From assembly GCA_903858015.1 (NCBI GenBank), contig CAIOGZ010000045.1, positions 7,178-71,177 on the forward strand: a DNA stretch of 64,000 nt, given 5' to 3'. The notes under the pieces are model-generated. The model made no database searches and was not told the origin of the DNA. It saw only the letters and a list, made by a program, of their open reading frames with translations. Each line of letters starts with the position of its first letter. Position 1 is the first letter of the stretch. Below are positions 1 to 48,697 of this stretch, piece by piece. The position numbers were made by a program, and so were the translations under genes. The DNA comes from an uncultured cyanobacterium. Lineage in GTDB: Bacteria > Cyanobacteriota > Cyanobacteriia > PCC-6307 > Cyanobiaceae.

Positions 1-712
1 GCGGTGGGCTGACTGGCGGGGGCGGCAGCGAAGGGCAGAGCTGGGCAATGATCGAGGGCGATGGGCGCCCTGCCAAGAGGCGCAAGGTCATGGCGCTGGG
101 GGTGCGACTCGCTGCTGAAAAGCGCAAATCAAAACTAACGCGGCTGCTATCGGTTTCGTTGGCGACACTGCCATGGGACAGCAAGCCACCGTCAAAAAAG
201 AGGGCCTGACCAAGGCGAACTTGAATCGGTTGATAATGTTCGCTTCCGTAGTTGTCCTCCACCCAGAGGGTGTTGCCAGCGAAGCAATTGGTGGCTGGCA
301 GCCAGATGTTGATCTGCTCCAATCGACCGGTGACGTTGGCGTCACGGTGCCAGCGACTCACCGAGCCTGAGCCGGCGAGATGGACCCGCATTTTGGGGCG
401 GGCCGCATAGGATATGCGACCACCAAAATAACGGACCACCAATTCATGCACAAAGCGTGTGTAGATTGTATAGAATTCCGAGCTCAATGGCAGGCGTTGC
501 ATCGCTTGGCGCAGGCGCAGATTATCCGGGTAGCCAGGCGGAGTGCCTGGCTTGCAAAGGTTACTTTGATGCAGGTTTTCCAGGTCATCAACCCGGAAAA
601 CCTGATCGCGAAGATAGCGAGCAAAGGGATAGAGTTCTGGGTCGTAGTTGAGCAACCAGGCCGATTGCATTCCAGGCACCTGGCTCCAGCTCTTGAGCGA
701 GTTGTCAGTCAT
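1..712 (-). CDS. Fe(II)/2-oxoglutarate dioxygenase (StrG/PhyH-like), 3' end runs off the window; absent from ORF track
   Basis: Hand translation from the ATG at 712 gives an open frame to the window edge (MTDNSLKSWSQ...). It has HxD in SRWHRDA and a distal His plus RxS in LSHGSVANETDSSRVSFDLRF. The ATG overlaps the TGA of the upstream methyltransferase (ATGA, 709-712). Confidence 0.75.
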   Translation of the reverse strand, partial: MTDNSLKSWSQVPGMQSAWLLNYDPELYPFARYLRDQVFRVDDLENLHQSNLCKPGTPPGYPDNLRLRQAMQRLPLSSEFYTIYTRFVHELVVRYFGGRISYAARPKMRVHLAGSGSVSRWHRDANVTGRLEQINIWLPATNCFAGNTLWVEDNYGSEHYQPIQVRLGQALFFDGGLLSHGSVANETDSSRVSFDLRFSAASRTPSAMTLRLLAGRPSPSIIAQLCPSLPPPPVSPP

Positions 713-3051
713 GGCAATAGCTTGACCAGGCTACGATTCACGATCTGGGCATAGAGAGAGGCACGCTCCCACTTATGCCAGATCATCCCGCCCATCGCCC
801 AGGGCGATTGGGCCTGGGCGCCATACAACTGCTGCCAGGCAACAGGTGTAAGACCAAACTCCGGTTGAGGTCGCAGCACCCCCTCGCTCACCGGCACCAG
901 GCCCACGAGCGCTTGACCATCCACCTGGCCATGGAGCATGGGGTGCAAGGTGATCGGATCAAGCAATAGCGATACTTGCCCCTGCCGCGCCCAGGCCGGT
1001 CCATCGCTCCAACTAATCTGATCGTGCTGCCACTGGCCTGGGGTAGCGATGCCATTCAGGGCCAGACTGTCCGCAGTGAGCCGCAGGCTGCGCAGCACAG
1101 GATGCCCCTTGAGCACAAATTCGCCGCGAAGGGATTGGGCCACTTGAGCATCCTTCTGCCAACAGCCATCGAGTGCAAAACGCTGGTTGCCGCAGAGCAG
1201 GTGGCGGCCCTGCAAGGCAAGAGCACCGGCTAGCTGGCTGCCATTGAGGCTCAGGTTCAAGCAACGGCCCTGGTCGCCCTGGTCGCAGACCTCCAGTACC
1301 AAACGGCCGGCGTCGGAGCGATAGCTGCCCACCGCCATCGCCGGATGCTGGCGGCCAGGAAGCACCTCATGGAACACGAGGCGGTGGTCGGCCGGTACGG
1401 CCTCGCCAGCGGGCCAGATACTGCCCAGCAAGCGCCGCTGGCCGCGGGTATCAACATCAACCCGTAGAAATCCGTGACTGGGTTGCGCCGACGTTGCCTG
1501 CCAACGCAAAACACCGCGCTTAAAGCGGAAATTGCTAATCAGCTTGCCCTGCAGCAACAACCGGGCCCGCGGGCCCTCGCCCAGCAACACCAACAACTGG
1601 TCGGGTTGGTTGGCCTGGTAGACGCCATTCCAGGGGAACAACAGATCGCGCTGGAGTAGGTCGATGTCGGTGCGCAACCTGCCCCATTCGCAATCGCCAT
1701 GGCCCGAGGCGGCCGCGAAAGCCTCCAAATCGGTGGTATCGCAGCGGCCCTGGCTAAGCAGTTGGGCGAGGCGGCGCAGCAAAGGGCGCTGCCGGAACAG
1801 GGCCTCCAACAACTGCCGATTGGCGGCGCAAACCACCTGGCTACCCTTGGCCGCCACCTGGAGAGCGCCGGCATCACGGCTGGCCAACAGGGTGCGCTCA
1901 CGGGCCGTGAGATCGGCAAATTCGGCGCTGGCCAGGGCGGCGTGGGGATTATCCCGGTAGCGATCGGCCAGTTCCTGATCGAGGCGCAGGGCGATCAAAA
2001 ACCGATTGGCGGCGGTTTCGCCTTGCCAGTGGTAACCAGCGGGCACCTGGAACTGGTGAAAGGCAGGAAAAGCCTTACGCTCCCGCGGGCCGTAGGTGCC
2101 GATCTGGCGCAGCGGCGTGGCCACCGGTTTGGGTTGCTGGCCAGGCTGCAACATGCCCAGCTGCTGCATCATCGTGGCGCAGGGAGCGGCGGTGTCTTTC
2201 GGGGCTAGATAAAAGGTGGAGATGCCCGTCACCTTGGCTTGGGTGTCGGGATCGTGCAGGGCACTGAGGGGATAGTGCTCGATCACGGGCGCGATCGTGG
2301 GGAAGCGGGAAGCGATGTAGTTGGTAACCTGGTAGTCGGGGCCATAGTGCTGCTGTAGATAGGAAACAAAAATGGAGAAATTATCATTGATATAGCCCTT
2401 GCGGCGATAGCCCATCTCACCGATCAAGCCCACCTGCCAGAGCACCACATGCAGCTGGGTCGAGGGCAGCCGTTTGCGGATCAGCATGTCGGTAGCCTCA
2501 TGCATTTGCATGCCTGGATGGGCGGGATCCACGCCGAGATCGGCGCACAGACAATCCAAGGCCGACACACTGGGCCGCATCACGGCATGGTGGCCCTCGC
2601 GCCGGGCGATCTGAATGGCACGGTGGGTGGAAAGAACAAAAATACCGGGATGGCCGTAGTAAATCGCCACTACCTTCTTGCCCTGACGAAGCGGGAATAA
2701 CATCGCCTCGGTCATCTGCATGTAGGTGGTGTAACGCACCTTGCTGTCGTCATAGAGCACATAAAGATCGAGGGCGTCCGGCCGCCGTTGCTTGATCCAG
2801 GTAACGGTGGCGGGATCGGCCACGCAGAAGAACACGGCGTCGGCGCCAAGAATCAGCTCTTCATCGCCGAGGGTGAAGCCGAGGATGCCGATGCCCGAGC
2901 CGATGATCGTGAGGCTGCCGGGCTGCTGGGGAGGGGTGGCGGCAGGTGCTTCCTGAATGGCATCGGCCTGGGCGGCGATCTGGGCAGCCAGCTGCTGCCA
3001 GGCCCGGGCATGGTGCTCCTGGCTGGGTAAACGATTGGGGGTGATGGTCAT
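709..3051 (-). CDS. Borosin-family SAM-dependent peptide alpha-N-methyltransferase with BBD/LigA-like helical bundle and long C-terminal extension
   Basis: GSLTIIGSGI, VADPAT, LYDDSKVRYTTY (Tyr/Arg/Tyr catalytic set as in OphMA), YYGHPG, SALDCLCADLGVDP, EAT, WQVG and STFYLAP all follow the borosin methyltransferase pattern. A BBD-like segment follows (ANRFLIALRLDQELADRYRDNP...LTARERTLL). Likely start is the ATG at 3051. Confidence 0.85.
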   Translation of the reverse strand: MTITPNRLPSQEHHARAWQQLAAQIAAQADAIQEAPAATPPQQPGSLTIIGSGIGILGFTLGDEELILGADAVFFCVADPATVTWIKQRRPDALDLYVLYDDSKVRYTTYMQMTEAMLFPLRQGKKVVAIYYGHPGIFVLSTHRAIQIARREGHHAVMRPSVSALDCLCADLGVDPAHPGMQMHEATDMLIRKRLPSTQLHVVLWQVGLIGEMGYRRKGYINDNFSIFVSYLQQHYGPDYQVTNYIASRFPTIAPVIEHYPLSALHDPDTQAKVTGISTFYLAPKDTAAPCATMMQQLGMLQPGQQPKPVATPLRQIGTYGPRERKAFPAFHQFQVPAGYHWQGETAANRFLIALRLDQELADRYRDNPHAALASAEFADLTARERTLLASRDAGALQVAAKGSQVVCAANRQLLEALFRQRPLLRRLAQLLSQGRCDTTDLEAFAAASGHGDCEWGRLRTDIDLLQRDLLFPWNGVYQANQPDQLLVLLGEGPRARLLLQGKLISNFRFKRGVLRWQATSAQPSHGFLRVDVDTRGQRRLLGSIWPAGEAVPADHRLVFHEVLPGRQHPAMAVGSYRSDAGRLVLEVCDQGDQGRCLNLSLNGSQLAGALALQGRHLLCGNQRFALDGCWQKDAQVAQSLRGEFVLKGHPVLRSLRLTADSLALNGIATPGQWQHDQISWSDGPAWARQGQVSLLLDPITLHPMLHGQVDGQALVGLVPVSEGVLRPQPEFGLTPVAWQQLYGAQAQSPWAMGGMIWHKWERASLYAQIVNRSLVKLLP

Positions 3052-3223
3052 GGTGTTGTGAAACGGTGGGGAAGTTTTAAAAGGCAGGATGAGCAAAAGA
3101 ATGCAGCAAAAGGTTCGCCGCAGCCATAACGATCAAATGGCTGCGAGTCTTCAAATAAGCGAATGAATGCCACGCCACGCCTCAATAGCCAACAACGGTT
3201 GCTAGCCGGAAGCGAAACGGAAA

Positions 3224-5569
3224 CTAAGCGGCGCTACTGCCACTCAGGGTCATAAGGCTCCACTGGGCACTGGCGCAGTTGATCGCTGAACCCCAGCCGG
3301 TGGCCTGCAGCTGGCTCCAGCCGCTGCCGTTGTAATACTCCACCGCACCACTCCCGAGCCCTACCAGCACCTGGGGCTGGCCACTGGCGAGCCAGTTCGC
3401 CTCCATGCAGGTGACGGCAGACCCCCAGCCGATGCCCTGCAGCTGGCTCCAGCCGCTGCCGTTGTAATACTCCACCGCACCACTCCCGAGCCCCACCAGC
3501 ACCTGGGGCTGGCCACTGGCGAGCCAGTTCACCTGCATGCAGGTGACAGCAGACCCCCAGCCGGTGGCTTGCAGCTGGCTCCAGCCGCTGCCGTCGTAGT
3601 ATTCAACAGCTGAATCACCTAGGCCCACAACGAGTTGGAGCAGCGCATAGGGAGAGGTGATGGCCGAGAGATAGTTCAGTGATGTCTGGCACCCCACCAA
3701 GACCGGCGGGGAAACGTTGTTGTAGGTGTAGTTTGCCAAAAGATTATAGGCTTCGTATTGCTCACTGCTGCTGGCAAAGGCACTCATTTGGTTCACGAGC
3801 GCTGATTGCGCCTGCGGCGTCCATTGCCAACTATTGGCGGCATTTTGGGCTGTGCTATTTGGAGTAGAGAGAATGGAGCTAAGCACCATTTGCTGGCTGG
3901 TGATCGAAGGCTGCGCTTGCTGAACCCAATCGGCAAAGGTGCTCCAGCACTGCTGCGGGGTGTTGTTGGGATTGAGCATGTAATTCACCAGCAGCCCCAA
4001 GCCTGTGGATTGCTGTGGTGCCATCGAATTCATATCGTCGACCGCAGCTGTTTTCCAGACGCCAAGCAATTTCTGGGCCGAAATCATGCAAAACACAATT
4101 GCCAAATTGTCCACAAGGGCTGGGAAACCCTTGTCCATGATCCAGCCGCCAAGCTGATTGAGCAGGGTGTTGACCCCGCCCTTGGGCACCTCAACGTCCG
4201 TGTCGGTATCCGTATCGATATCGGTGTCGGTATCTGTATCGGTATCCGTGACATTGTCGGTATCGGTGACAACGTCTACGTCGCTATCAATATCAACGTC
4301 AATATCAACATCTACATCAATGATGGCAAATACATCTACGTCAATATCAACATCTACATCAATATCGACATCCGTATCCACATCGGTATCAACAACGGTG
4401 TCAGTGTCTTCCACGATATCTGTGTCGATGTCCGTGTCAACATCAACATCCACATCAACATCGACATTGATCGGATCGATGTCTTCGCCCAGCTCCGCGA
4501 TCGGATCGGCGGTGGCAGCTTGGCTGGAAAGATTTTCATTGATCGAGGCTACCAGCTTGCCGAGGTTGCTGTAGAGGAAAGCCATGCCATTGGCTACACC
4601 CTCTAGTACAAATGCCGCCATGTTTAGCACCATCAGCAACTGCACGGTGCGAAACGACACGAAGGCCATGTCGTAGGCCGCCACCCACCAGGGGATGGTG
4701 GGATTGGCATAGGGCTGGGCGATCAGGCTGGTGCCATTCAACGTGCCGCTCAGACAGAGCACGATCTGATCAGGACTGCCCTCCCAGGACAAACTGCGCG
4801 GGATACCAGCCAGCCATAATCCTTGGGTACTGCTGCCCCCGCTTGAACTCAACACCCCACCGCTGACGCTTAGGGGTGGCGTGAATGCGGATGCGCTGGA
4901 GGTTTTGGCAGGTGCATAGCTGGCGGCGCCATTGGCAATCGTAAGGGTGCCAACGCTGACGGTGGGCAGCACCAGATTGCTGGTGGAGGTGGTATCTGGC
5001 TCAAAGCAGAAGTAGGTGCCACTCCAGGGGAAGAGGGTGTTGTTGGCCCAGTAGGCCAGGGCTGCCATCTGCGGTTCCGTGCCGCCAGCCATGCCGTTGG
5101 CAGTACAAAAGGCGGCAACGTTGGTTTCCAGCTCAGCCGGGCTGGTGGAGGTATAGTAAATTTCGCTAAATTGCAGGGCCAGTGGTGAATAGGGCTGGGC
5201 CATGGTCTGCAGGTAAAAGCTCCAGCAGGTCTGGGCTATGGCTAGATCTGCCTGGGTGACTGTGGTGGCCGCTTTCTTGCTGAGGGGGGGCACCCAGACC
5301 AGCACAGGAAATTCGTTGTCTTGTTGCGCCAGTACGAGCCGGCTGCTGGAAGTTGATGGTGTAAAAGTGCCACTGCCATTGGCGGGAATGACGGCAATCT
5401 GGGTGTAGGTCGGCGCATAGTCAGCCGATTCCGTGCTGGGCGGTGAGCTGGGGGGGTTGGCACTGAAGGTGTAGTACACAATCAGCGGGGTGGCCAGCTG
5501 GTTGGTTACCGTGAGAAGGTTACTACTGCTCGATGAACTGGAACTGGTCGAACTTCCTGAAGCTGTCAT
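3224..5569 (-). CDS. Large protein with internal Asp-periodic (D-V/I/T)n tract, flanking hydrophobic helices and 3 C-terminal Trp-rich repeats; candidate borosin substrate
   Basis: ORF 3224..5608, likely start ATG 5569. About 95 aa of DVDVDTDID-type tract sit between two apolar helices. No signal peptide. Lies directly upstream of the methyltransferase on the same strand. Confidence 0.7.
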   Translation of the reverse strand: MTASGSSTSSSSSSSSNLLTVTNQLATPLIVYYTFSANPPSSPPSTESADYAPTYTQIAVIPANGSGTFTPSTSSSRLVLAQQDNEFPVLVWVPPLSKKAATTVTQADLAIAQTCWSFYLQTMAQPYSPLALQFSEIYYTSTSPAELETNVAAFCTANGMAGGTEPQMAALAYWANNTLFPWSGTYFCFEPDTTSTSNLVLPTVSVGTLTIANGAASYAPAKTSSASAFTPPLSVSGGVLSSSGGSSTQGLWLAGIPRSLSWEGSPDQIVLCLSGTLNGTSLIAQPYANPTIPWWVAAYDMAFVSFRTVQLLMVLNMAAFVLEGVANGMAFLYSNLGKLVASINENLSSQAATADPIAELGEDIDPINVDVDVDVDVDTDIDTDIVEDTDTVVDTDVDTDVDIDVDVDIDVDVFAIIDVDVDIDVDIDSDVDVVTDTDNVTDTDTDTDTDIDTDTDTDVEVPKGGVNTLLNQLGGWIMDKGFPALVDNLAIVFCMISAQKLLGVWKTAAVDDMNSMAPQQSTGLGLLVNYMLNPNNTPQQCWSTFADWVQQAQPSITSQQMVLSSILSTPNSTAQNAANSWQWTPQAQSALVNQMSAFASSSEQYEAYNLLANYTYNNVSPPVLVGCQTSLNYLSAITSPYALLQLVVGLGDSAVEYYDGSGWSQLQATGWGSAVTCMQVNWLASGQPQVLVGLGSGAVEYYNGSGWSQLQGIGWGSAVTCMEANWLASGQPQVLVGLGSGAVEYYNGSGWSQLQATGWGSAINCASAQWSLMTLSGSSAA
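3260..3640 (-). repeat. Three tandem 44-aa repeats (VGLGxxAVEYYxGSGWSQLQxxGWGSA), beta-propeller-blade-like
   Basis: Near-identical 132-bp tandem units are visible at DNA level. Confidence 0.85.
4190..4485 (-). repeat. Coding low-complexity (Asp-X)n tract, X = V/I/T
   Basis: DIDPINVDVDVDVDVDTDIDTDIVEDTDTVVDTDVDTDVDIDVDVDIDVDVF...DTDTDVEV, with mixed synonymous codons. Confidence 0.9.
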
Positions 5570-5646
5570 CACAAGGGGGCTGCAATGGTATTGAGGGGAA
5601 AGCCCCACTCCCTTAGAGGTGGGGCTGCAGATTGACCTTTAGCGGC

Positions 5647-8607
5647 TTATTCGAGATCAGCTAAATCACCAAGGTCACCATCCCCATCTCCATCCCCATC
5701 TCCATCCCCATCTCCATCACCATCACCATCACCATCACCATCACCATCTTCATCTTCCTTTTCCTGCTCATCCGATTCGTCAGCCTCTTCTTCTGACACC
5801 GTATCTTGTTGTTTAATAACATTGGCTGATGCTGCATCGCCTAAAGAGACATTCTCGTCTGCGATTGCTGTTTGATTGTCAGCAATACTAGTCTGAATAT
5901 TTTCCAGAGTTTCGCTAGCTTCACTTGATTCAGGATCAACCTCTTCTAGTTGATCCCTATCGGATTCTATTGTGGAGTTTTCAGCTTCGGTTGCCGGGTC
6001 GTTTTCTAATTCTTGCTGACTATGCACTTCACCGGCTTGTTGTGAGAGCTCTGCCTCCTCAATTGCCTCGTCATTTGCGTTAATGACAGTATCTTCACTG
6101 ATTTCACCTCCATCAACCGCCTCATCCTCTTCGTTTTCGGCGTTCTTGACCGACGGCTCGTCACTGGCTTGTGCCTCGCTCAGGCTATCGCCTGTCTTTA
6201 CCTCTTCATCAATGCCGGCGTCTTCCGCTTTCTCCTGAGCATCGTCCCTGAGCTCAGCTTCCTTGTCAGCGATCTCCTCTGAAGATGGATCCTCCCCACT
6301 CTCGCATTTTTCTTTGATCCAATCAAAGGTATCTCTCATGCAATCTATTCCAAATTTGAGCACCATGAGCAGCTGAAAAGCTTTAAATGCGTTAGAATTC
6401 ATAGCCCTATCAAAGGCTTTTCCTTCCTTGGCTGAAAATGTCCTGCTCAAATCTATTGGCGAGCCTATGACATTGGTACCGTTGATCAACCCAACTAACG
6501 CTTGAATGGGTATGCCCGTATCGTCTGAATTACCAGTCATTTGGGCCATGTCCACAAAGGTGCATTGCAGGCAGATGGCGGTGAATCCATCGCTATTGGC
6601 GTTAACCAACTGTTCATCCACGAAGTTGAGGCTAACGGACTTACTGCCTGTTGGATTCCAGTTGATTGAGTACCCCGCATTGGCATCGGAAACTGCAGCC
6701 AGCGTGGGTCCTGATTGGGTGAATACCACTGTGCCCAAGGATTTATATTGCTCATTAACTTTCACACTTGTGCTGCCAGTGGTACTGCTGCTATCACTGG
6801 TATCTGGAGTGACAGTGTAAAAGTTGTATGTATAAGTGGGCTGAAAATTTGCCCAGGCGTAGGCGTAGGCCGAGAGGTAGCTGCAGACCGCGCTATAAAT
6901 CTGGAAATTTACATTCTGGTAATTGCTTGTCTGTGCAAAGAACAGATCGACATTTGTAGCTTCAGCTGTTCCAGCACTACAATCTGCGTTCAACGCAGCC
7001 GTAAACTGCTGGGCCTGAGCGGATGAAGGATAAGCCATTATGTTCTGCTGAAATACATAGGCATTGGCAGCAGAACTTGAGTTGCATGGTGCTAGCGGCA
7101 ATACCGGTATGGCCGGAAATGTAAACATTCCCTTATCTTCAGCAACGGTAGCAACCGGAAAGTAATTATTGGATTGGGAAAGAAGAAGGGTGTAGCTTTG
7201 ATTAACTTGAGTGTCGTTTTCAGGTTCAAGATAGGGCAATAAATCAAGGGTCCCAGTTTCGCCTAGCGGTAGAACATTCGACATTGTATTAATCTCATTT
7301 TGGCTGGTAGTGCCCTCAGAGATGAAGCTGAGTAGAATCAGATTGCTCTGGAGATAACAGACTGTAGTTGCATTGGTGGTGTTATAGCCGCTTATGACCA
7401 CGATGCCTCCGTCCCATCCTGTTTGGGCTGGCGTATTTGGGTTGGTGGGCAGAATCAGATTGTTGTTGACGGAGCAGGTGTTTTGTGGCGTGGTGCTGCC
7501 ATTCAAGGGCGACACGGCCCACTGGGCACTGCCGCATGCAATCGCCGAGCCCCAACCCGCGCCCTGTAGTTGACTCCAGCTCGAGCCGTCAAAAGACTGA
7601 ACGGAACTATCGGCCAGGCCAACAATGATCTGGGGGTTCTCAAGACCGAGCCAACTCACCTGCAGGTAGCCTGCGGAGCTGCCCCAGCCGCTGCCTTGCA
7701 ACTGGCTCCAGCTGCTGCCGTTGTAATACTGCACCGAGCCATCACTCAGAGCCACCACCACCTGGGGAGCGCCACTAGCCGGCCAGTTCACCTCCATGCC
7801 AGTCACAGAGGAGCCCCAGCCCGTGCCTTGCAGCTGGCTCCAGCCATTGCCGTTGTAATACTCCACCGCGCCGCTGTTCAGACCCACCACCACCTGCGGA
7901 TCGGCTGATGTCCACTGCACCGCCAGCTGGCCGGCATTGGAACCCCAGCCCGTGGCCTGCAATTGGTTCCAGGAGCTGCCGTTGTAGTACTGCACCGATC
8001 CGTTGCCCAAACCCACGACGACCTCAGGCGTGCCGGAACCGTTCCAATTCACCGCCAGCGAACCTACGGAGTTCTTCCAGCCTGTGCCTTGCAACTGGCT
8101 CCAGCTGCTGCCGTTGTAGTACTGCACGGAGCTGTTGCCCAGCCCCACCACCACCTGGGGATTGCCACTGGCCGGCCAATTTACCTCCATGCAATTGACA
8201 GAGTTGTCCCAGCCCGTGCCCTGCAGCTGGCTCCAGCCACTGCCGTTGTAATACTCCACCGCACCACTGCTGAGCCCTACCACCACCAACGGATTGGCGG
8301 ATGTCCACTGCACCGCCAGCTGGCTGGCACTGGAATCCCAGCCCGTGCCCTGCAGCTGGCCCCAGGAGCTACCGTTGTAATACTGCACGGAACTGTTCCC
8401 GAGCCCGACGACGATCTGCGGCGTGCCGTACTCACTGAAAGTCACCGCCATCGACTTCACAGAGCTGGACCAACTCGTGTCTTGTAATTGACTCCAACCG
8501 CTGCCGTTGTAGTACTCCACGGCAGCATCGCCGAGTCCCACGACGATCTGAAGCTGCGGGGAAGTTGGACTGGTGGTGCTGGTGACTGATGCTGAAGATT
8601 GAGTCAT
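5647..8607 (-). CDS. Large protein: 8 N-terminal Trp-rich propeller-like repeats, central domain paralogous to the 3224 protein, long acidic tail ending in (DG)12
   Basis: 986-aa ORF. FQQNIMAYPSSAQAQQF aligns with FYLQTMAQPYSPLALQF, and AFKAFQLLMVL aligns with SFRTVQLLMVL of the neighbour. No signal peptide. Confidence 0.75.
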   Translation of the reverse strand: MTQSSASVTSTTSPTSPQLQIVVGLGDAAVEYYNGSGWSQLQDTSWSSSVKSMAVTFSEYGTPQIVVGLGNSSVQYYNGSSWGQLQGTGWDSSASQLAVQWTSANPLVVVGLSSGAVEYYNGSGWSQLQGTGWDNSVNCMEVNWPASGNPQVVVGLGNSSVQYYNGSSWSQLQGTGWKNSVGSLAVNWNGSGTPEVVVGLGNGSVQYYNGSSWNQLQATGWGSNAGQLAVQWTSADPQVVVGLNSGAVEYYNGNGWSQLQGTGWGSSVTGMEVNWPASGAPQVVVALSDGSVQYYNGSSWSQLQGSGWGSSAGYLQVSWLGLENPQIIVGLADSSVQSFDGSSWSQLQGAGWGSAIACGSAQWAVSPLNGSTTPQNTCSVNNNLILPTNPNTPAQTGWDGGIVVISGYNTTNATTVCYLQSNLILLSFISEGTTSQNEINTMSNVLPLGETGTLDLLPYLEPENDTQVNQSYTLLLSQSNNYFPVATVAEDKGMFTFPAIPVLPLAPCNSSSAANAYVFQQNIMAYPSSAQAQQFTAALNADCSAGTAEATNVDLFFAQTSNYQNVNFQIYSAVCSYLSAYAYAWANFQPTYTYNFYTVTPDTSDSSSTTGSTSVKVNEQYKSLGTVVFTQSGPTLAAVSDANAGYSINWNPTGSKSVSLNFVDEQLVNANSDGFTAICLQCTFVDMAQMTGNSDDTGIPIQALVGLINGTNVIGSPIDLSRTFSAKEGKAFDRAMNSNAFKAFQLLMVLKFGIDCMRDTFDWIKEKCESGEDPSSEEIADKEAELRDDAQEKAEDAGIDEEVKTGDSLSEAQASDEPSVKNAENEEDEAVDGGEISEDTVINANDEAIEEAELSQQAGEVHSQQELENDPATEAENSTIESDRDQLEEVDPESSEASETLENIQTSIADNQTAIADENVSLGDAASANVIKQQDTVSEEEADESDEQEKEDEDGDGDGDGDGDGDGDGDGDGDGDGDLGDLADLE
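5674..5748 (-). repeat. (Asp-Gly)12-Asp coding repeat
   Basis: GAT-GGN hexamer repeats; 25 codons counted directly. Confidence 0.9.
7519..8559 (-). repeat. Eight tandem 43-44 aa repeats (PQVVVGLxxxxVxYYNGSxWSQLQGTGW), probable 8-bladed beta-propeller
   Basis: Eight units counted in the translation; same consensus as the 3260-3640 repeats. Confidence 0.85.
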
Positions 8608-8753
8608 GACTGCAAAGAAAAAATGGTGAGGAAAAGCGATCTGGATGAGGCCCCATGCAATGCAGGGAGCCAGATGTGCCTGCAGTCAGGGGGGACGACA
8701 GAAAGAATGGAGTTGATGCAAGAGCTTGATTGCTCTTGTGTGGCTGATTTGAA

Positions 8754-10733
8754 TCATCGCTGCGCCACTAGATACCAGCCGCCACTTCCTTGAGGCCGCC
8801 AGCGCGGTTCCCAGTTGGCATAGGAATAGTGCTGGCGGGCACCATTGTGGTTTTGGGGATAGCCGCCATTCACCAAATCACAGCTGCCGTAGGGATCATT
8901 CATGATCACGCCGCTGGCGTCGTAGCCGATCACCACGGTCCAGTGGCCCCCGCCGCTCGGCGCCGATGGCGGGCCGTTGATCAGCCAACCCACCGCCACC
9001 GGGCGGCCCGCATCGATCTCACTTTTGATGGTCTGTAAGGTGCCATCGGTACGGAACTCCGCCTTCAGGCCCAGGTGCCGCAGCGCCGCAAGCTGGGCCT
9101 CAGAGGTGGTGGAGTCGCCGTATTGTTGGCGCAGAGCGTTGTAATCATCTTCGTTGGGTTCCTTGCCCCAGTAGGCGGCAAGCATGGCCGAACTGGCTGA
9201 GAAGCAATCGCGCCATCCCTGGCCATCGTCCATGGCCAGTTGGTCGAACCAGGGCACGTTGAGCGGATTGGGATGGGGGGCAGCAACTGCAGTGGCTGCT
9301 GTGGCAGGCCGATCGACTGCCCTAGGCCCGCCGCCGGTACCGAGCTGGCCTGGAGGGGTTCGGCTGGGTTGGCCGGCGCTAGCGGGTTGGGCCGCTGCGC
9401 TAGCCAAGCTGGCCATCCCCTGCTGCCACAGATCGGCCTCCGCCTGACGGCGCCGTAGGAGCCCCGCCTGCACCGAACTGCCCGGATCGCAATACAGCAG
9501 GAGGGCTTCGGGTACCTCAGCCCAATCCTTTTCCCTGAGACGGCGGCTGATCGTATCGAAGCCGGCACCGCCATAGAAATCTTCACCCAGATTCCAGGCA
9601 AAGGAGATCAGGCAGCAGCGCTGATCTTCCGCCATGCCGCTCCAGTAGGGAACGCGGCTGGCTAGATGGCGGGCGCAGGCATTGACACCAGCGAGCAGTT
9701 GGGCATCGGCCTCGGCGCGGCTAAGGGTGTCACCGGGCTGCACCGGACGCCCATCAAGACTGGTGAAGCCGTAGCCGATCGTCCAGGGTTCATCGCCGCT
9801 GGCCGGATCCGGATAGGCGTGATCCACAAATCCTTCGAACTCGGCAATCAACTGCAAGGCGGGTTCATAGGCAGGCGCGGCATCGCGTTGGCCAACGGCA
9901 GGGTGGGCGGCAAGGGAGGCGGTAGGGGAGGTAGTAGGGGAAGCTGCAGTGGGCTCCGCAGCCAGTAGGGGCAGGCTCGCCGCCGGGCCTGCCAGCCGAT
10001 GGGGTGGGGTGATTGCGCCGTTCGGAGGCGCGGATCGGGCCAGGATTGGGCGCAACACTGGCCCAGGGCTGGACTCTGGAACCAGGGGCGCTGGCCGGGG
10101 CTGCAGCGCGATCGGATCCACAGCAACGGCAGCCGCTGCAGGCGACGGGCGCGATGGTTGCAGAAGGCCGGAAAACTTGTTGGCTACGTAGGGGGCAAAC
10201 AGGGTGAGACCCGAATAAAGAAAAGTGCTAACAGCCACACTGGATGCGGGCATCTGACAGGTGAGTCCAAAGGTGTAGAGCGAAAAAACACCAAAGCCCA
10301 GATAGATCAAAAGAATCGCCACCATGCCCGCCAGGGCAATCAGTCGGCTGCTGCTGGCCTCCATTAGGATCACCGACGTGGGAGGGCCGTGCGGCGCGAG
10401 GGCCTTGATGCGAGCCTGGCTATCCCCCTGGGATTGCGCCCAGTGCTCGTCTAAAGGAATCGAGAGATGGGTGGGCTCGGAGATGGCATTGGCAAGCGAC
10501 CAGCCACTGCGCTGCAGCCGCCAATAAATCACGAAAAGCGTGACAACAACAGCGGTGAAAATGCCGGTGCTGATCGCCATCACCAGCTCGGGCCCCATGC
10601 TTCGGCAGAGGCCAGCGGCACCACCTAGCTGCTCCTGGGCCGCCGCAGGAAGCGAAAAGCCAAGCAACAACAAACAGACCATCAGCTTGGATCTGGATGG
10701 CATGATCAGCCGAACAAGTTTCAGATTCTTCAT
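8754..10733 (-). CDS. Membrane-anchored fusion: N-terminal multi-TM region, Pro-rich linker, GH24 (phage-type) lysozyme, C39-like peptidase
   Basis: Signal-like and 3 TM-like segments at the N-terminus. LIAEFEGFVDHAYPDPASGDEPWTIGYG fits GH24 E..D..T. LNVPWFDQ...DCFSAS, GHWTVVIGYD and NDPYG fit Peptidase_C39_2-like Cys/His/Asp. Confidence 0.8.
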   Translation of the reverse strand: MKNLKLVRLIMPSRSKLMVCLLLLGFSLPAAAQEQLGGAAGLCRSMGPELVMAISTGIFTAVVVTLFVIYWRLQRSGWSLANAISEPTHLSIPLDEHWAQSQGDSQARIKALAPHGPPTSVILMEASSSRLIALAGMVAILLIYLGFGVFSLYTFGLTCQMPASSVAVSTFLYSGLTLFAPYVANKFSGLLQPSRPSPAAAAVAVDPIALQPRPAPLVPESSPGPVLRPILARSAPPNGAITPPHRLAGPAASLPLLAAEPTAASPTTSPTASLAAHPAVGQRDAAPAYEPALQLIAEFEGFVDHAYPDPASGDEPWTIGYGFTSLDGRPVQPGDTLSRAEADAQLLAGVNACARHLASRVPYWSGMAEDQRCCLISFAWNLGEDFYGGAGFDTISRRLREKDWAEVPEALLLYCDPGSSVQAGLLRRRQAEADLWQQGMASLASAAAQPASAGQPSRTPPGQLGTGGGPRAVDRPATAATAVAAPHPNPLNVPWFDQLAMDDGQGWRDCFSASSAMLAAYWGKEPNEDDYNALRQQYGDSTTSEAQLAALRHLGLKAEFRTDGTLQTIKSEIDAGRPVAVGWLINGPPSAPSGGGHWTVVIGYDASGVIMNDPYGSCDLVNGGYPQNHNGARQHYSYANWEPRWRPQGSGGWYLVAQR

Positions 10734-10754
10734 TTCAATAACTGCGATAGTTTC

Positions 10755-11666
10755 TCAATGGGTGGAATCAGTTGTCGACGCTTTGTGGATCAAGACGGCG
10801 GCCTCTTTGACAGCGAATTGATCATCCATGACAAAGACTGGAGTGTCATTGAGGGCTAATTGCTGATCAACAAAATCGAGGAAAGCGCCCAGCTGATAGC
10901 GATCACGCAAGGACAGCCGCTCGGATCCACTCCCATACTCCTGATTGGCAATCGCTGTAGCAAAGCTGCGGGTTAGTGCAATCGTCTGCTTGTAAAGACG
11001 AGCGCTTATCTGTTGATTGCTTTTCAGATTGAAGGTGTTGATCGTCACCACCGCCATACCCAAGGCGAAGCCCGAGGCCACCAGCACGCTGAAGGGCCAA
11101 CGGATCTCCGTCTGCAAGCCATGCAGACTGAGCAATGCCAGCATCGTTGCCGACAGCATTGCCGCCGCATTGGCCATGCCAACCAAGGCCTGATAGTTTG
11201 CAGAAAAAATCTGCATACTCTGGCAATGGTATTGATAAAGCTCCTTCAATTCAATGGCCTGTCGCACTAGGCGTTGCCTCTGCAGAGGAGACGCGGTTGG
11301 CAATGCCAAACCCAACTGCTGAAGATTGATGCTGGTGCCCAGCGGCAGCGGGTCGCCTGGTTGTTGGTGCTGCTGGGGATCGGGTTGCAGCAACTTGATT
11401 GGGACCCTGTTGCAATAACCTAAATTGCGTTGGCGGCTCTGGGCCGCCTGGCGGTATACCACAACGAGGGCGAAGGCCAACGCCAGGATGGCGCCCGCCA
11501 GCAGCAGATGGCCAGCCGTACTGAGCCGTAGTCTCCGGCCAGCTTGCTGCATCCCTTGGCCCACCAACCTGGCATGGTTGGGTAGCTCGCCTGCATCCAC
11601 GCTTGCCTCCATCAGCAACCGCCTGATCGCCATGCCTGGGCCTTGGCGCTCGATCGCCTGGGTCAT
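10755..11666 (-). CDS. Hypothetical membrane protein (3 predicted TM helices; C-terminal 2TM part SLATT-like)
   Basis: Hydrophobic segments LLLAGAILALAFALVVVY, NAAAMLSATMLALLSL and FSVLVASGFALGMAVVTI. First gene of the minus-strand run. Confidence 0.55.
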   Translation of the reverse strand: MTQAIERQGPGMAIRRLLMEASVDAGELPNHARLVGQGMQQAGRRLRLSTAGHLLLAGAILALAFALVVVYRQAAQSRQRNLGYCNRVPIKLLQPDPQQHQQPGDPLPLGTSINLQQLGLALPTASPLQRQRLVRQAIELKELYQYHCQSMQIFSANYQALVGMANAAAMLSATMLALLSLHGLQTEIRWPFSVLVASGFALGMAVVTINTFNLKSNQQISARLYKQTIALTRSFATAIANQEYGSGSERLSLRDRYQLGAFLDFVDQQLALNDTPVFVMDDQFAVKEAAVLIHKASTTDSTH

Positions 11667-12322
11667 GGGCTGCAGCCGTTACAGGAACTAGCCAGCAAGG
11701 GCAAAGCGATGCAATAACAGCTTGAGGCGCCGGCGGGGGTGAATGAACTGGAACTTGCTAGCAATGCCATGGGTGATGCACCTGCTGGAAGGTTCTGGAG
11801 CTGATTTTCTCTGTCTAAGGTGAATCAATGGACAGCATTCGAATGGGCTGGGTTGAGTCCGGCTCAAGCGATTGCCGTATCCATCGATCGAACAATGAAC
11901 CACCTCGCCCCAGCTGGCCAATCATTTCTGAAATCTTTCAAAGCCCTGCCCCATCCAGCTCGCCGCGGCCCTTCAGCTTCGGTACCAGCTCCAGCTCCAA
12001 CCCCAGCTCCAGCCTCGGCTGCAGCCCGAGCCCCGGCATCGCCTGCCCATCGACCGACAGGGCGAGGAAGAGAAGCATAGGAATAAGAGTATAAACTCAA
12101 CATTCGCAAGTAAAGTACAATTTCAACCCCAACATCGAAACCCTGCCCCAAAGGTCCAGTTTCGGCTTGACAGCATGGCCACAGTTTTGCCAAAATAGTT
12201 ACTGGTATGCTTAAAATAGCCTCACCCGCCTGCGCCCCCCCTAGCCATGCATGCATACTGATCGGCCAGCTTTTGCCATCAATGAGGATGTCCGATTCTT
12301 GTTTCGCTAGCCATGGCAGCTC

Positions 12323-13714
12323 TTGGCCCCAACTCCTCGTGCTGGCTGGCTAATCGGCCCCTATCGGCTGACCATTTTAGGAGAGCTGAGCCTAGGTGGA
12401 TCCGGAATCAATATCATGCCTTTGCAGCGAGAGTTGCTGCTCATTTTTGCGCTACAACCCAGACAAATCCTAACGCAACAGGAGCTTATTAGCCGGCTCT
12501 GGCCGGATCAACAACCAACCAAAACCCAACGCCCTGCCCTCAGCTTAGCCGTGCACCGCCTGCGCCAGGTCTTCGCCCAGGGCCCCCTGGGGACCGAGGT
12601 GATTCGGAGCATCTACGGCAAGGGATACAGCTTTGAGGCCCCAGTTGAACCGATGGATACGCCCGAACCGAAGCCGAATGGGTCGCCATCTGCCCCGGCA
12701 AGCGCCAGCAACGAAACCGCTGTCCAAGCCTATGATCGCAGCATGGCCAGTCGTCTGTTTTATTTTGAGGCCCATGATTACTGGCCCAATCGCGATCCCT
12801 ATCGCCTGCCTCGTCAGCAATGGCTGCTGCAGCAGAGCGTTGAACATGATCCCAACTTCAACCAAGGCCGGCTGGAGCTTTGTTATTTTCAGCTACTCCA
12901 ATGTCTCTGGGGTGTGCGTACCGCCGCCAGCACGCTGCCCGATTTACAACAGTGCCTCGATCTAGGCGATCAGCAGGACAGCCAAGCCCCGGGCTGGGCC
13001 GCGATCAAAGCGGAAACCTTGTCGTTACTGCTCTGGCAACCGCAAACCAGTCAGCGCCTTTATGGCAGCTGGCTGGGTCCAACCCTGCCTGCCGGATTGC
13101 CGCGCTTTGCCTGGGCCCGCCACCTGATTTTCACAGGAAAAGCGCGCCAGGCCCTGCGGCTGCTTGCTCAACTACTGCACCAAGACCTCAGCCAGGGCTG
13201 GTTGGTGCTATCGCTGGCCCATTGTGCCCTCGGCGACATTGCGGCCGCCGAGCAGGCGGCCGAACAACAGTTGCGGGTGAATCCAGCCCTGGTGGGCAGC
13301 AAATTGTTTCTGGCCATGCTGGTGGCCCTGCGGGGCGAAGCTGAGCTGGCCACGAAGCTGGTGGAAGAGAGTGGCATCCTGGAACGGCCGTTTCAAGGCT
13401 CCCTTTCGATGGTGGCCTATGCGCTGGCCCACGGCAGGTTGGCCAAACGAGCCCACCAACTCTTGGATGAGGCCCTGGCCCTGATTAGCCAGGATCCCGA
13501 TGCGGCCGGCGCCCTCGGCTACTGGGGGTTGGCGGCCCTGGCCCTGGGTCGCTCCTATGAAGCGATCGGCTTGCTCAAGCTGAGCGTGCGGCGCCGCTGT
13601 TATGCCGCCCCGGTGTTGATGGCCACCCCCTTTCTCCACCCCCATGCGCCAACCCCGGCCGGCCAACTATTTCGCGAGCGCATGGGCCGTGCCTTCGTGA
13701 TCGCCCCCAAATAA
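12323..13714 (+). CDS. Transcriptional regulator, OmpR/PhoB-type winged helix plus TPR-like sensor
   Basis: ILTQQELISRLWP...LSLAVHRLRQ...IRSIYGKGYSF (Trans_reg_C pattern), then helical TPR-like repeats. Divergent from the borosin cluster. TTG start uncertain. Confidence 0.8.
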   Translation: MAPTPRAGWLIGPYRLTILGELSLGGSGINIMPLQRELLLIFALQPRQILTQQELISRLWPDQQPTKTQRPALSLAVHRLRQVFAQGPLGTEVIRSIYGKGYSFEAPVEPMDTPEPKPNGSPSAPASASNETAVQAYDRSMASRLFYFEAHDYWPNRDPYRLPRQQWLLQQSVEHDPNFNQGRLELCYFQLLQCLWGVRTAASTLPDLQQCLDLGDQQDSQAPGWAAIKAETLSLLLWQPQTSQRLYGSWLGPTLPAGLPRFAWARHLIFTGKARQALRLLAQLLHQDLSQGWLVLSLAHCALGDIAAAEQAAEQQLRVNPALVGSKLFLAMLVALRGEAELATKLVEESGILERPFQGSLSMVAYALAHGRLAKRAHQLLDEALALISQDPDAAGALGYWGLAALALGRSYEAIGLLKLSVRRRCYAAPVLMATPFLHPHAPTPAGQLFRERMGRAFVIAPK

Positions 13715-13756: not shown

Positions 13757-15472
13757 TTAAAACGCCGCGATCGGCATGCGCCAACCGGTGCCGAAGGAGC
13801 GGCGGCTTACCTTCAAGCTGGGCGCCGCCTGGCGCCGCTTGAACTCCGAGCGCCGCAGCAGGGTCCAGATCCGCTCCACCAACACCGCATCGGCACCCTC
13901 CGCCACCAGCTGCTCGGGGCTGGCTAGATCCTCCACCAGCCGCTTCAAAATCGGATCGAGCTGGGCGTAATCGGGCAGCGAATCACTATCGCGTTGGCCG
14001 GGCCGCAGTTCGGCGCTGGGGGGTTTGGTGCGAATCGCCGCGCCAATCAACGCCCCCTCGGCCGGCAGCCCCAGGGAGCGGCGGCAGGCGCTGGCGGCCG
14101 CTGAATCGATCCACTCGCAGAGCTCAAACACGGTGGTTTTGTAAAGATCGCCGATCACGGCCAGGCCACCATTCATGTCGCCATAGAGGGTGCAATAGCC
14201 CACCGCCAGCTCGGATTTATTGCCGGTGGCCAACAGCAACTGGCCCTGCTGGTTGGCCACCGCCATCAGCAGCGTGCCCCGCAGCCGCGATTGCAGGTTT
14301 TCGGCGCACAGCCCCGCCGGGGGCTCCCCCAAGGCGGGCGCCAACGCCGTATCCATGGCCTGCATCAACGGCGCAATCGGGAGTGTGTCGAGCACCAGGC
14401 CCAAGCGCGCCGCCAGATCGGCCGCATCGCCCAGCGAGCCCGGCGAACTCCAGGGGGAGGGCAGGCGCAGGGCCCGCACCCGCTGGGCGCCAAGGGCCGC
14501 GCAGGCGATCACCGCCACCAGGGCCGAATCGATGCCACCGCTGAGCCCCAGCAGGCCGCCGTTGAAGCCGCACTTGCGGGCGTAGTCGCCCAGGCCCAGC
14601 ACCAGGGCCCGCAGCAGCTGCTCCGGCGCCGCTGGTTCGCCGCCGCAGGGCGCTTCGGCCGGGGCGAGGCGATTGGCGGGCGCGGGCGCTGGGGTCGGGG
14701 CATCCCAAAAGCTCAAATCTTCGGCGGCCCAGGCCTGTTGCAGCACCACCACGCCGGCAGCATCCACCACAAAACCGCCGCCGTCGAACACCAGGTCGTC
14801 GTTGCCGCCCACCTGGTTGACGTAGACCACCGGCACGCCCAGCCGGCTCGCCGCCCGCGCCGCCAACCGCCGCCGCAGCGCCGCCTTGCCCTGGCCGAAG
14901 GGGGAAGCCGAGAGGTTGAGCAGCAGGTCGAGGCGCTGGCCCGCCAGCTCGGCGATCGGATCGGCCCCGGCCAGGCGGTGGCCCTGCAGGCCCTCCTCCA
15001 CCCAGAGGTCTTCGCAGATGGTGAGGCCGAAGCGCCAGCTGCGCGCGCCCCGCTCCAGCTCCAGCACCGCCGCCGCCTCACCGGGGCGGAAGTAGCGGCG
15101 TTCATCGAAGACGTCGTAGCTGGGCAGCAGCCGCTTGCGGGCCACCACCCGCCAACCGCCGGCTTCCACCAGGGCCAGGGCGTTGTGCAACGCCGGCAGC
15201 TCCGAGCTGGCGATCGGCTCCACCATCCCAACCAGCAGCGCCATGCCAGGCGGCAGCTGGGCAACGAGCCGATCGAGGGCCCGGCCCTGGGCCGCCAGCA
15301 GCGAGGGCCGCAGCAGCAGGTCGCGGGGGGGATAGCCCCAGAGGGAGAGTTCGGGGCTGAGCAGCAGCTGGGCCCCGGCCGCCGCCGCCCGCTGGCTGGC
15401 CGCCAGGATCCGCTCGGCATTGCCGGCCAGATCACCCACCACGGCATCGAGCTGGGCCAGGGCCAGGCGCAT
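13757..15472 (-). CDS. nadE: Glutamine-dependent NAD+ synthetase
   Basis: Nitrilase-like domain (PELSLWGY, RKRLLP, ICEDLW) plus SGGIDS synthetase domain. Start MRLALAQ at 15472. Confidence 0.95.
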   Translation of the reverse strand: MRLALAQLDAVVGDLAGNAERILAASQRAAAAGAQLLLSPELSLWGYPPRDLLLRPSLLAAQGRALDRLVAQLPPGMALLVGMVEPIASSELPALHNALALVEAGGWRVVARKRLLPSYDVFDERRYFRPGEAAAVLELERGARSWRFGLTICEDLWVEEGLQGHRLAGADPIAELAGQRLDLLLNLSASPFGQGKAALRRRLAARAASRLGVPVVYVNQVGGNDDLVFDGGGFVVDAAGVVVLQQAWAAEDLSFWDAPTPAPAPANRLAPAEAPCGGEPAAPEQLLRALVLGLGDYARKCGFNGGLLGLSGGIDSALVAVIACAALGAQRVRALRLPSPWSSPGSLGDAADLAARLGLVLDTLPIAPLMQAMDTALAPALGEPPAGLCAENLQSRLRGTLLMAVANQQGQLLLATGNKSELAVGYCTLYGDMNGGLAVIGDLYKTTVFELCEWIDSAAASACRRSLGLPAEGALIGAAIRTKPPSAELRPGQRDSDSLPDYAQLDPILKRLVEDLASPEQLVAEGADAVLVERIWTLLRRSEFKRRQAAPSLKVSRRSFGTGWRMPIAAF

Positions 15473-15483
15473 CGGGATTCGGC

Positions 15484-16134
15484 TCAAGGGGGCGACGGCC
15501 CTTGCAGGCCATAAAGATTGTGCTGCAGCAACAGCGGCCATAACGCCGCCGGCACCTCCTGGAGGGCAGCAGGCACGGGCTCGGCCAGGGGCGTGGCTGG
15601 GGGCTGGGCCTGCGGGGCGGCGGGGGCCTGCTGGGCGGCGGGGGCCTGCTGGCGAACGCGGCTGCTGGCGGTGGCAGGCACCGCCACATCAAGGATCTCC
15701 GTACGGGCCCCGAGCTGCTGCAGGCTGGCCAGCTCGGGGCTCTGCAGCGGCCAGCCGCCGCGGGGCGCGATCGCCAGCCGGCAGCCCTGCAGCAGCCGCG
15801 CCGCTTGCCGCCAGCGGGGGATCTGGGCCACCAGATCGCTGCCCACCACAAACACCAGCGGCTGCCCAGGCCAGCGCCGCCCGGCCCGCTCCAGGGTCTC
15901 GATCGCCCAGGGGCTGCTCAACTCCGGCTCCAGGCTGAGGCGCGGGTTGTGGATCGCCGCCACCAGGGTGCCCAACAGCTCGGAGCGCAGGGCCAGGGGG
16001 GCGCCGTGCTGCTTGAGCGGGTTGTCACTGGCCCAGGTCGCCACCTGGGGATAGCGCTGCAGCAACCCCTCCAGCAGCACCCGGTGGCCTTCGGTGGGCG
16101 GATCGGCGCTGGTGCCGAACAGGGCGACGGTCAC
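15484..16134 (-). CDS. nadD: Nicotinate-nucleotide adenylyltransferase
   Basis: LFGTSADPPTEGH, FVVGSDL and SSRVR motifs; adjacent to nadE. Confidence 0.92.
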   Translation of the reverse strand: MTVALFGTSADPPTEGHRVLLEGLLQRYPQVATWASDNPLKQHGAPLALRSELLGTLVAAIHNPRLSLEPELSSPWAIETLERAGRRWPGQPLVFVVGSDLVAQIPRWRQAARLLQGCRLAIAPRGGWPLQSPELASLQQLGARTEILDVAVPATASSRVRQQAPAAQQAPAAPQAQPPATPLAEPVPAALQEVPAALWPLLLQHNLYGLQGPSPP

Positions 16135-20056: not shown

Positions 20057-20316
20057 GGGGGATGGCAAGCAACAGGTGGCTGCCTGATGCGAAGCGCGAG
20101 AAATAGGCAGCTGGCGCCTTGGTTTGCAGCAGTAAGGATGGAAAACAACTGGTTTTTGCTGCGGTTCTGCAGTAGAAGGATGCAGGATGGCTTGAGCTGG
20201 CGTCAGCGCATGGGGAACCGGGGCAGCAGGGTTGATCGCGAGGGGCATGGGCGCTGGCATCTCGCGATTCCTGGCGGCATCCCCCGCTGCTTGCACGCCC
20301 TGGCCGGGGCCCTGCG

Positions 20317-23391: not shown

Positions 23392-23392
23392 C

Positions 23393-26197: not shown

Positions 26198-26218
26198 GCT
26201 TGGTGACTATCCTTTGCA

Positions 26219-27724: not shown

Positions 27725-27748
27725 ATGTTATTATTGGGTTAATTGGTA

Positions 27749-29889: not shown

Positions 29890-29900
29890 ACCACAATCCC

Positions 29901-38305: not shown

Positions 38306-38380
38306 CCCCCTACCAGTTTTCCTTTCGCCTTGAGAAAGCGTCACTGGGGTTCGTCTTGGGTTTCAGAGGTGAGGTCCAGA

Positions 38381-38692: not shown

Positions 38693-38775
38693 GAGAGCGC
38701 ATGATTGACCACTTTATTTGACTCTAGCTTGTTAAGGGTTGATTGAGGGCTTGTGCAACCCGTCGACGTTGCACG

Positions 38776-48692: not shown

Positions 48693-48697
48693 TTATT

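Follow-up and report, generated by a model that had tools for sequence, protein, structure and literature searches.

Introduction

N-methylation of the backbone is a rare modification among ribosomal products and one of use to biotechnology. Here, we describe a locus for a borosin alpha-N-methyltransferase (NMT) in the first 13.7 kb of a 64,000-nt stretch of DNA, hereafter the window, from an uncultured member of the Cyanobiaceae (assembly GCA_903858015.1, contig CAIOGZ010000045.1, positions 7,178 to 71,177 of the forward strand). For the large-precursor borosins, types VI–VIII, we know of no product or biological role. Bacterial split borosins were divided into types IV–X (Imani et al., bioRxiv 10.1101/2021.12.24.474128; ACS Chem Biol 2022). 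In types VI–VIII, the binding domain is fused to the enzyme and the precursors contain repeats of alternating acidic and hydrophobic residues; in type VIII, the precursor has about 600 aa, and its middle part contains D[V/I]D[V/I] repeats whose acidic residues are methylated (10.1101/2021.12.24.474128). Type VIII was validated with the PmoA/PmoM pair of Pseudomonas mosselii CIP 105259, in which N-methylation of the Asp backbone was found (10.1101/2021.12.24.474128).

The locus consists of six minus-strand genes in one run, transcribed in the order Mem303, LC, A2, A1, M and Ox, and one divergent regulator gene, Reg. The genes named in an initial annotation of this DNA were all found in their places as open reading frames (ORFs). 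That annotation had proposed a split borosin acting on a very large Asp-periodic protein. The proposal was correct, but its novelty was overstated, since backbone methylation of giant proteins has already been published (type VIII, Imani et al.). The value of the locus lies in the partners A2 and Ox and the propeller fusions as leads. Based on the results below, it is very probably a split borosin locus of type VIII, located on an island of 13.8 kb that was acquired horizontally.

The methyltransferase M and the precursor A1

Residues of M were counted from the TTG at position 3096. All 25 matches of M among the PDB sequences were borosin NMTs, with no cobalamin or siroheme enzyme among them (phmmer). 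The best was dbOphMA (2.5e-71 over aa 55–433), and OphMA (1e-70), MroMA (4e-60) and SonM (4e-40) were also found. The region aligned to OphMA covers the catalytic domain and the clasp/borosin-binding domain (BBD) region. The catalytic residues Y63, Y66, R72, Y76 and Y98 of OphMA, the last one within YGHPG, correspond to Y112, Y115, R121, Y125 and Y147 of M. In M, YGHPG occupies residues 147–151 and DxLCADL, a motif of the DCLFAD type, residues 181–187, with D181, L183, C184, D186 and L187 aligned to OphMA. An alignment of 25 homologues from many phyla shows no variation in the catalytic residues or in DxLCADL. An AlphaFold2 (AF2) model of M was obtained with a predicted local distance difference test (pLDDT) score of 82, and its top 50 Foldseek matches were all borosin NMTs. 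Judged by its sequence, M is a member of the family of S-adenosylmethionine (SAM)-dependent, OphMA-like alpha-N-methyltransferases, as had been proposed in the initial annotation; the comparison with tetrapyrrole methylases by profile and structure did not place it with the cobalamin/siroheme enzymes.

In the AF2 model, a helical bundle (aa 362–448) is present together with a folded C-terminal domain. The extension is beta-rich at aa 490–735 (pLDDT about 90) and continues into two helices; the last 310 aa were predicted to form a folded domain without repeats, conserved in the 25 homologues. More than 350 homologues of 730–830 aa align over 97% of the length of M, and thus the 360-residue extension is a feature of the family. 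A profile of the C-terminal domain found no relative among the PDB sequences (best E 0.84), and Foldseek with the full-length model returned matches to the NMT domain only and nothing for the C-terminal domain. The closest non-cyanobacterial M in the searches came from Sorangium (63% identity). In databases, M is labelled 'SAM-dependent methyltransferase'.

A1, encoded upstream of M, is built of an N-domain (aa about 28–335), a borderline hydrophobic helix (317–339), a predicted core, a post-core domain (aa 475–650) and C-terminal repeats. The 91-residue core comprises 39 D, 21 V, 16 T and 9 I in strict alternation; it starts with DPINVDVD, ends with TDVEV and is broken once by FAII. The layout is common to all 35 A1 homologues, which are usually 600–650 aa long and have cores of 58–96 residues starting near residue 355 and followed by 174–208 residues. 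The published N-methylated peptides of PmoA, 'ADPVNVDVDIDVDID...', 'IAVVDVDVDVDIDVDID' and 'TDTETDIDIDVD...DTDVN' (Imani et al. supplement), match the A1 homologues of Pseudomonas fontis (L030) and Burkholderia (L027) at equivalent positions with 0–4 mismatches. These homologues are, in turn, 36–41% identical to A1 of the window across both flanking domains. By sequence, the window A1 belongs to the PmoA family, and the link, although indirect, is tight. The view that a large D-X protein serves as the substrate of M is strengthened by this relationship and by the conserved synteny described below, and by analogy with PmoM/PmoA, M would act on the A1 of the window.

The absence of a small SonA-like precursor, noted earlier, was borne out: the short intergenic gaps and the 656-bp divergent region contain no credible small precursor ORF. 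A 130-aa ORF at 11864–12256 was considered for this role and rejected as a low-complexity sequence without support.

The conserved A2-A1-M-Ox cassette

To assess the distribution of the system, 80 genomic loci encoding relatives of M, 74 of them non-cyanobacterial, were searched with every protein of the window, and gene positions were counted in loci with a full-length-type M and enough flanking DNA. A1 was found directly upstream of M in 28 of 39 loci, A2 upstream of A1 in 21 of 39, and Ox directly downstream of M in 37 of 47. The gene order was always A2-A1-M-Ox (about 35 loci). The hosts belong to many phyla and include Sorangium, Methylococcaceae, Massilia, Paenibacillus, Acidobacteriaceae, Flavobacteriaceae, Pedobacter, Burkholderia, Pseudomonas, Nannocystis, Hahella and Vibrio. 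The four products of the cassette in P. koreensis share 26% (A2, E 9e-29), 41% (A1, a protein of 598 aa, E 4e-85), 46% (M) and 40% (Ox) identity with their counterparts in the window. M, A1, A2 and Ox are thus members of conserved families that form a syntenic cassette, and the survey of neighbourhoods for DX-repeat partners of M that had been suggested in the initial annotation identified A1 as such a partner. In the window, the gaps along the run Mem303-LC-A2-A1-M are 21, 146, 38 and 127 bp, and the stop codon of M overlaps the start codon of Ox (ATGA).

The complete Ox is 243 aa long, and its gene runs 21 nt past the start of the window. H122-x-D124, H180 and R191 are invariant in 16 Ox homologues from many phyla. 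The AF2 model of Ox (pLDDT 92.4) adopts a double-stranded beta-helix (DSBH) fold. It gave 206 Foldseek matches at E<=0.001, including SptF, AndA, FtmOx1, AusE, PrhA, the halogenase CytC3 and ThoJ, a biosynthetic enzyme for peptides that are ribosomally synthesized and modified post-translationally (RiPPs), with E-values in the range 1e-8 to 1e-5 (down to 1.4e-8). A profile of Ox homologues also found the 2-oxoglutarate (2OG) hydroxylase PtlH, weakly and at the motif regions. Sequence and model together support the placement of Ox in the Fe(II)/2OG oxygenase family, in the PhyH-like group. Hydroxylation of Asp or Val would be the obvious guess for its activity.

It should be noted that some more distant NMT loci (L045, L046, L049, L050, L057–L059, L064, L066, L072, L075 and L078) retain an Ox homologue 2–4 kb downstream and have no match to the N-domain of A1. 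Their hosts are Planctomycetaceae, Pseudoalteromonas, Bacteroidota, Actinomycetota and Pyrinomonadaceae. In L050 and L059, there is a weak match (27–28%) to the post-core domain of A1 only. Since such distant loci keep the oxygenase, Ox may be a general partner of borosin enzymes of the NMT-BBD type. In the searchable borosin papers, neither an Ox-type oxygenase nor a second large protein is mentioned, and no searchable paper linking borosins to 2OG oxygenases or beta-propellers was found.

The paralogue A2 and the 44-residue repeats

A2 consists of eight N-terminal repeats, a mid-domain and an E/D-rich tail ending in (DG)12. The N-domain of A1 and the mid-domain of A2 are homologous in a profile–profile comparison (hhalign, 99.5%, E 6e-23, 305 columns), and A2 is, therefore, a paralogue of A1. 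Both large proteins had been described as Asp-periodic. This holds for the 794-aa A1 with its D[V/I/T] core, while the 986-aa A2 has no D[V/I] core and its tail is generally rich in E and D. A2 may be a second substrate of M, or a partner or scaffold of A1.

The two proteins were also correctly recognised as repeat-bearing, but the 44-residue repeats (three in A1 and eight in A2) had not been separated from the Asp repeats. The 44-residue unit (VVGLGxGAVEYYNGSGWSQLQGTGW) is found N-terminally in A2 and C-terminally in A1, the A1 copies being 57–63% identical to those of A2. Comparison of the unit with PDB and Pfam gave sub-threshold matches to WD40/RSE1 propellers only, and A2 gave weak matches to beta-propeller families of Pfam. 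The repeats occur in the cyanobacterial loci only and in none of the 74 others. Their number and position vary among the relatives: in L012, A1 has eight and A2 none; in L009, A1 has about eight and A2 also carries N-terminal copies; in G002, there are three on A1 and none on A2.

In a related species, a 10,440-aa ORF (L095, region G003:C70:15868-16515) contains four 'VVGLGSGAVEYYNGSGWSQL' repeats adjoining a C-type lectin domain (PF00059, 1.5e-6). Because the unit is also found there, it can be regarded as a shuffled module of giant picocyanobacterial proteins. A different repeat is present in the A1 homologues of L015, L017, L019, L021 and L031 (Paracraurococcus, Methylococcaceae and Lamprocystis), which are 880–1105 aa long: their post-core tail is composed of PALAVFNGxLYLAFTGTDNxIYLxSSxDGxxFS units with weak BNR_2 matches. 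As this BNR-like tail sits at the same position as the 44-residue repeats, a propeller-type module was fused to the precursor more than once. The propeller-like repeats of A1 and A2 are probably binding modules.

A genomic island between ald and nadE

The features of the locus are listed in Table 1. The block is AT-richer than the nadE side, as noted before: its GC content is 48–65%, against 72–75% from nadE onwards and about 70% on the side of ald, the other flank of the island, which lies just before the start of the window. Scans for promoters and terminators in the locus revealed no enrichment over shuffled sequences.

Table 1. Features of the borosin locus and its flank (positions in the window; aa numbering of M from the TTG).
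Feature	Position	Strand	Basis or remark
Ox, putative small Fe(II)/2OG oxygenase	1..712	-	motif, AF2/Foldseek, homologues
M, predicted borosin alpha-N-methyltransferase, 795 aa	709..3096	-	TTG at 3096, likely start ATG at 3051
M, NMT domain, aa 57–300	2197–2928	-	
M, clasp/BBD region, aa about 301–433	1798–2196	-	
M, conserved beta-rich C-terminal domain, aa 486–795	712–1641	-	
A1, predicted type VIII precursor protein, 794 aa	3224..5608	-	homology, synteny
A1, predicted core, aa 381–471	4196..4468	-	composition, homologue layout, PmoA peptides
A1, three C-terminal 44-residue propeller-like repeats, aa about 657–790	3239..3640	-	identity to A2 repeats
A2, paralogue of A1, 986 aa	5647..8607	-	hhalign, P. 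koreensis homologue
A2, eight repeats, aa 19–370	7498–8553	-	
A2, mid-domain, aa 375–760	6328–7485	-	
A2, E/D-rich tail, aa 766–986	5650–6312	-	
LC, membrane-anchored muramidase and papain-like C39_2 peptidase fusion, 659 aa	8754..10733	-	Pfam
Mem303, protein with three transmembrane helices, first gene of the minus-strand run	10755..11666	-	hydropathy
Reg, winged-helix and tetratricopeptide repeat (TPR) regulator, 463 aa, divergent	12323..13714	+	Pfam Trans_reg_C
nadE, island flank, outside the system	13757..15541	-	NF010588 4.8e-187

The relatives of the host are picocyanobacteria named Cyanobium or Synechococcus. M was found in two of 36 other genomes (species) of the genus; in a further genome (G023), genes for A1, A2 and LC lie on a contig that ends before M. 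In at least 20 genomes of the genus, ald and nadE are only 32–65 bp apart, which represents the empty site. The spacing is 13.8 kb here and 13.4 kb in G002, which has the same block. Given the spacing in the relatives, the whole block from Ox to Reg came in as one insertion. In G009 (C1:52397-62335), ald and nadE are separated by 6.8 kb with a different insert, and in G032, G013 and G004 they are located on different contigs. The junction looks like a hot spot of insertion or recombination. The 13.8-kb block is a horizontally acquired island of a freshwater picocyanobacterium.

Two more low-GC stretches were observed in the window at 20000–31000 and 38000–50000, where the GC content falls to 48% and 41%, respectively, against about 70%. 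They are probably additional islands.

LC, Mem303 and Reg

LC combines a Phage_lysozyme domain (1.9e-19) with a Peptidase_C39_2 domain (5.3e-13, 50.2 bits against a cut-off of 24) and has 2–3 transmembrane helices. C39 leader peptidases are papain-like enzymes that are classically fused to an ATP-binding cassette (ABC) exporter and cleave after Gly-Gly. In LC, the fusion partners of the C39_2 domain are a muramidase and transmembrane helices instead of an ABC transporter, and neither A1 nor A2 has an evident double-Gly leader. Mem303 has no match in Pfam or NCBIfam. Reg contains an OmpR/PhoB-type winged helix (Trans_reg_C, 2.5e-10) and TPR-like helices and has no receiver domain.

It is quite possible, though we do not lean to it, that LC, Mem303 and Reg form a module of their own in picocyanobacteria, which shares the island and takes no part in the borosin chemistry. 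None of the three was found in the 74 non-cyanobacterial loci. Full-length LC homologues with 70–73% identity are present in G013, G004 and G018, genomes that lack M, and contig C12 of the genome under study encodes a further LC paralogue. Three unrelated small paralogous genes are flanked by Reg and LC homologues in L101. Against such independence, the three genes accompany the cassette in four cyanobacterial loci, where two different gene orders occur (the window, L012 and L105 versus L011), Mem303 accompanying LC and Reg in L011, L012 and L105. In the window, they are also inside the same ald-nadE insertion, and Mem303 and LC continue into the cassette in one minus-strand run with gaps of 21–146 bp. 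The cassettes of L011, L012 and L105 have a copy of Reg next to them (54–89% identical), and so does a cassette-free LC homologue in L101. In our preferred interpretation, the cassette travels with Reg, Mem303 and LC, and LC may contribute to the processing or release of the product.

Several other loci deserve mention with respect to these genes. The LC paralogue of the same genome (G000:C12:121824-123953) is 57% identical to LC and lies in a 968-aa open frame; several stand-alone C39-like copies are located on contigs C6 and C58. The three paralogous genes of L101 (6885–8933, G018:C33) encode proteins of about 190–200 aa with 'MSSNSSSTVGYKFTS...FYFQNNTSSPFDYDVSS', without any borosin enzyme, and are placed between the homologues of Reg (54% identity) and LC (71%). 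The presence of these unrelated genes between them suggests that Reg and LC frame variable cargo. In L002/L011 (9100–13157; Synechococcaceae metagenome-assembled genome, JBKDSQ010000076.1), a YcaO/TfuA pair with small ORFs, a RiPP module of the thioamide/azoline type, directly follows the block of borosin genes, Reg, membrane protein and LC. This island, therefore, includes two RiPP-like systems.

Proposed pathway and alternative explanations

We infer the following scheme. M, which is probably dimeric as other borosin enzymes are, would dock on the separately encoded large protein A1 and iteratively methylate backbone amide nitrogens, chiefly those of Asp, along the 91-residue D[V/I/T] repeat. 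Its fused clasp/BBD and the conserved beta-rich C-terminal domain set M apart from SonM. Ox, translationally coupled to M, would act on the same substrate and most likely introduce a further modification there, probably a hydroxylation. A2, in which the E/D-rich tail replaces the D[V/I] core, could be methylated as well or could hold A1 as a partner.

Several points weigh against this scheme. The link to the validated PmoA/PmoM pair runs via congeneric homologues and published peptide fragments. In the co-expressions of types VI–VIII, only N-methylation was seen, with the inclusion of the oxygenase unstated (10.1101/2021.12.24.474128). Ox scores below the curated cut-offs (PhyH, 21.6 against 22 bits; TIGR04324, 41.1 against 150), and for this reason we treat it as a divergent relative outside both curated families. 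LC homologues are common in genomes of the genus without M and the non-cyanobacterial cassettes have no protease, so its role in processing is weakly supported. Finally, the locus has no exporter gene, and a hydropathy scan found no signal peptide or strong transmembrane segment in A1 or A2; the 'secreted-type' nature that the initial annotation gave to the large proteins is not supported.

A more tentative alternative is that the product is not an excised RiPP peptide but intact, modified A1/A2, which makes the locus a protein-level modification system. In that case, the poly(N-methyl-Asp-Val) segment would be a structural or metal-binding element of an A1/A2 complex targeted by the propeller modules. 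A protease is encoded in none of about 30 non-cyanobacterial cassettes, folded domains are conserved on both sides of the A1 core in all members, and A2 is a conserved paralogous partner. Moreover, A1 has two unrelated propeller-type tails in different lineages, an arrangement that is sensible only if the protein stays whole. Because different propeller domains were repeatedly fused to the precursor, the intact protein may be the working product. On the other hand, in every characterised borosin whose product is known (omphalotin and that of Shewanella), the product is a released peptide, the protease is possibly encoded elsewhere, and the cyanobacterial loci do carry a C39-like peptidase.

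Carried further, this idea would turn the type VIII 'borosins' from peptide natural products into a widespread system of four genes for building a modified protein machine, with A1 and A2 left intact, which we regard as speculative and rather unlikely. Equally speculative is the suggestion that a poly(N-methyl-Asp-Val/Ile) segment of 60–95 residues, oxidised by Ox, might serve as a rigid, non-aggregating, cation-binding strand. With the same low confidence, the propeller modules (the 44-aa repeat, or the BNR-like one in methanotrophs) might direct the complex to a target such as a glycan or the surface of a cell, and it is just as doubtful that the picocyanobacterial LC helps the complex to cross or attack the cell wall.

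It is highly improbable that M is an autocatalytic fused borosin similar to types I–III, with its own C-terminal extension as the substrate. The alignment of M to the fused OphMA does run through the clasp, and another 360 residues follow it in M. However, this extension is a confidently predicted beta-rich fold with terminal helices, has no repetitive or hydrophobic core and is conserved as a domain in 25 homologues, and bacterial NMTs expressed alone showed no self-methylation (Imani et al., 10.1101/2021.12.24.474128). M was accordingly rejected as a fused borosin. That M is a cobalamin/siroheme-type tetrapyrrole methylase with unrelated large proteins as neighbours can virtually be dismissed: although PF00590 (TP_methylase) is its sole Pfam placement and the database name is uninformative, the match of 2.4e-9 stands against 1e-71 to borosin NMTs, which are its only PDB matches, all borosin-specific catalytic residues are present, the synteny with A1 is conserved, and no tetrapyrrole genes lie nearby.

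With split type VIII methylation of A1 as the preferred reading, the locus is a clear example of genes acquired horizontally by freshwater picocyanobacteria, for which the empty site is defined. It also places a validated enzyme–precursor pair in a conserved four-gene cassette together with an acidic paralogue, A2, and an oxygenase. As candidates for the second modification and for the partner that have been missing, Ox and A2, respectively, offer new leads for the borosin field.

Comparison with known systems

Ox resembles the PhyH-like oxygenases ThoJ (PDB 6ZYK) and PtlH (2RDN) in its predicted DSBH fold, the HxD...H iron triad and the 2OG-binding Arg, but its identity to them is only 12–19% and it remains under the Pfam gathering threshold.

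For M, the closest solved structures are OphMA and dbOphMA (types I–III; PDB 5N0Q and 6MJG), to which the NMT and clasp align end to end with 37–38% identity. In these autocatalytic enzymes, the core is their own C-terminus, whereas in the window the core is on a separate protein and the C-terminus of M is folded. SonM/SonA of Shewanella oneidensis (type IV; PDB 7LTC) shares with M the trans-acting mode and the catalytic family (E 4e-40). SonM, however, has 263 aa and no BBD, which is carried by the small precursor, while M has 795 aa and a clasp/BBD of its own.

Types VI and VII (SliM/SliA of Spirosoma linguale and AinM/AinA of Achromobacter insuavis) are similar in having an NMT-BBD fusion that acts in trans on acid/hydrophobic repeats, and several of the more distant NMT loci in our survey likewise keep Ox. 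Their precursors have either 300 aa, with TEVX repeats that are methylated consecutively, or about 110 aa, with an NMT longer than 1000 aa; the position of the core and the protein sizes do not agree with the window locus.

The closest described system is PmoM/PmoA. Both have an NMT of about 800 aa with a fused BBD and a long C-terminal extension, and a large precursor, encoded separately, whose middle holds a D[V/I]D[V/I] core followed by about 175–200 residues. The cores share a DP[IV]NVDVD start, an internal hydrophobic break (IAVV/FAII) and a TDV[NE]V end, and congeneric Pseudomonas loci have the same A2-A1-M-Ox order. Compared with PmoM/PmoA, the core in the window is richer in Thr. Three features of the window locus are specific to picocyanobacteria: the propeller-like 44-residue repeats on both large proteins (three added at the C-terminus of A1 and eight at the N-terminus of A2), the additional genes LC, Mem303 and Reg, and the insertion of the whole block between ald and nadE.

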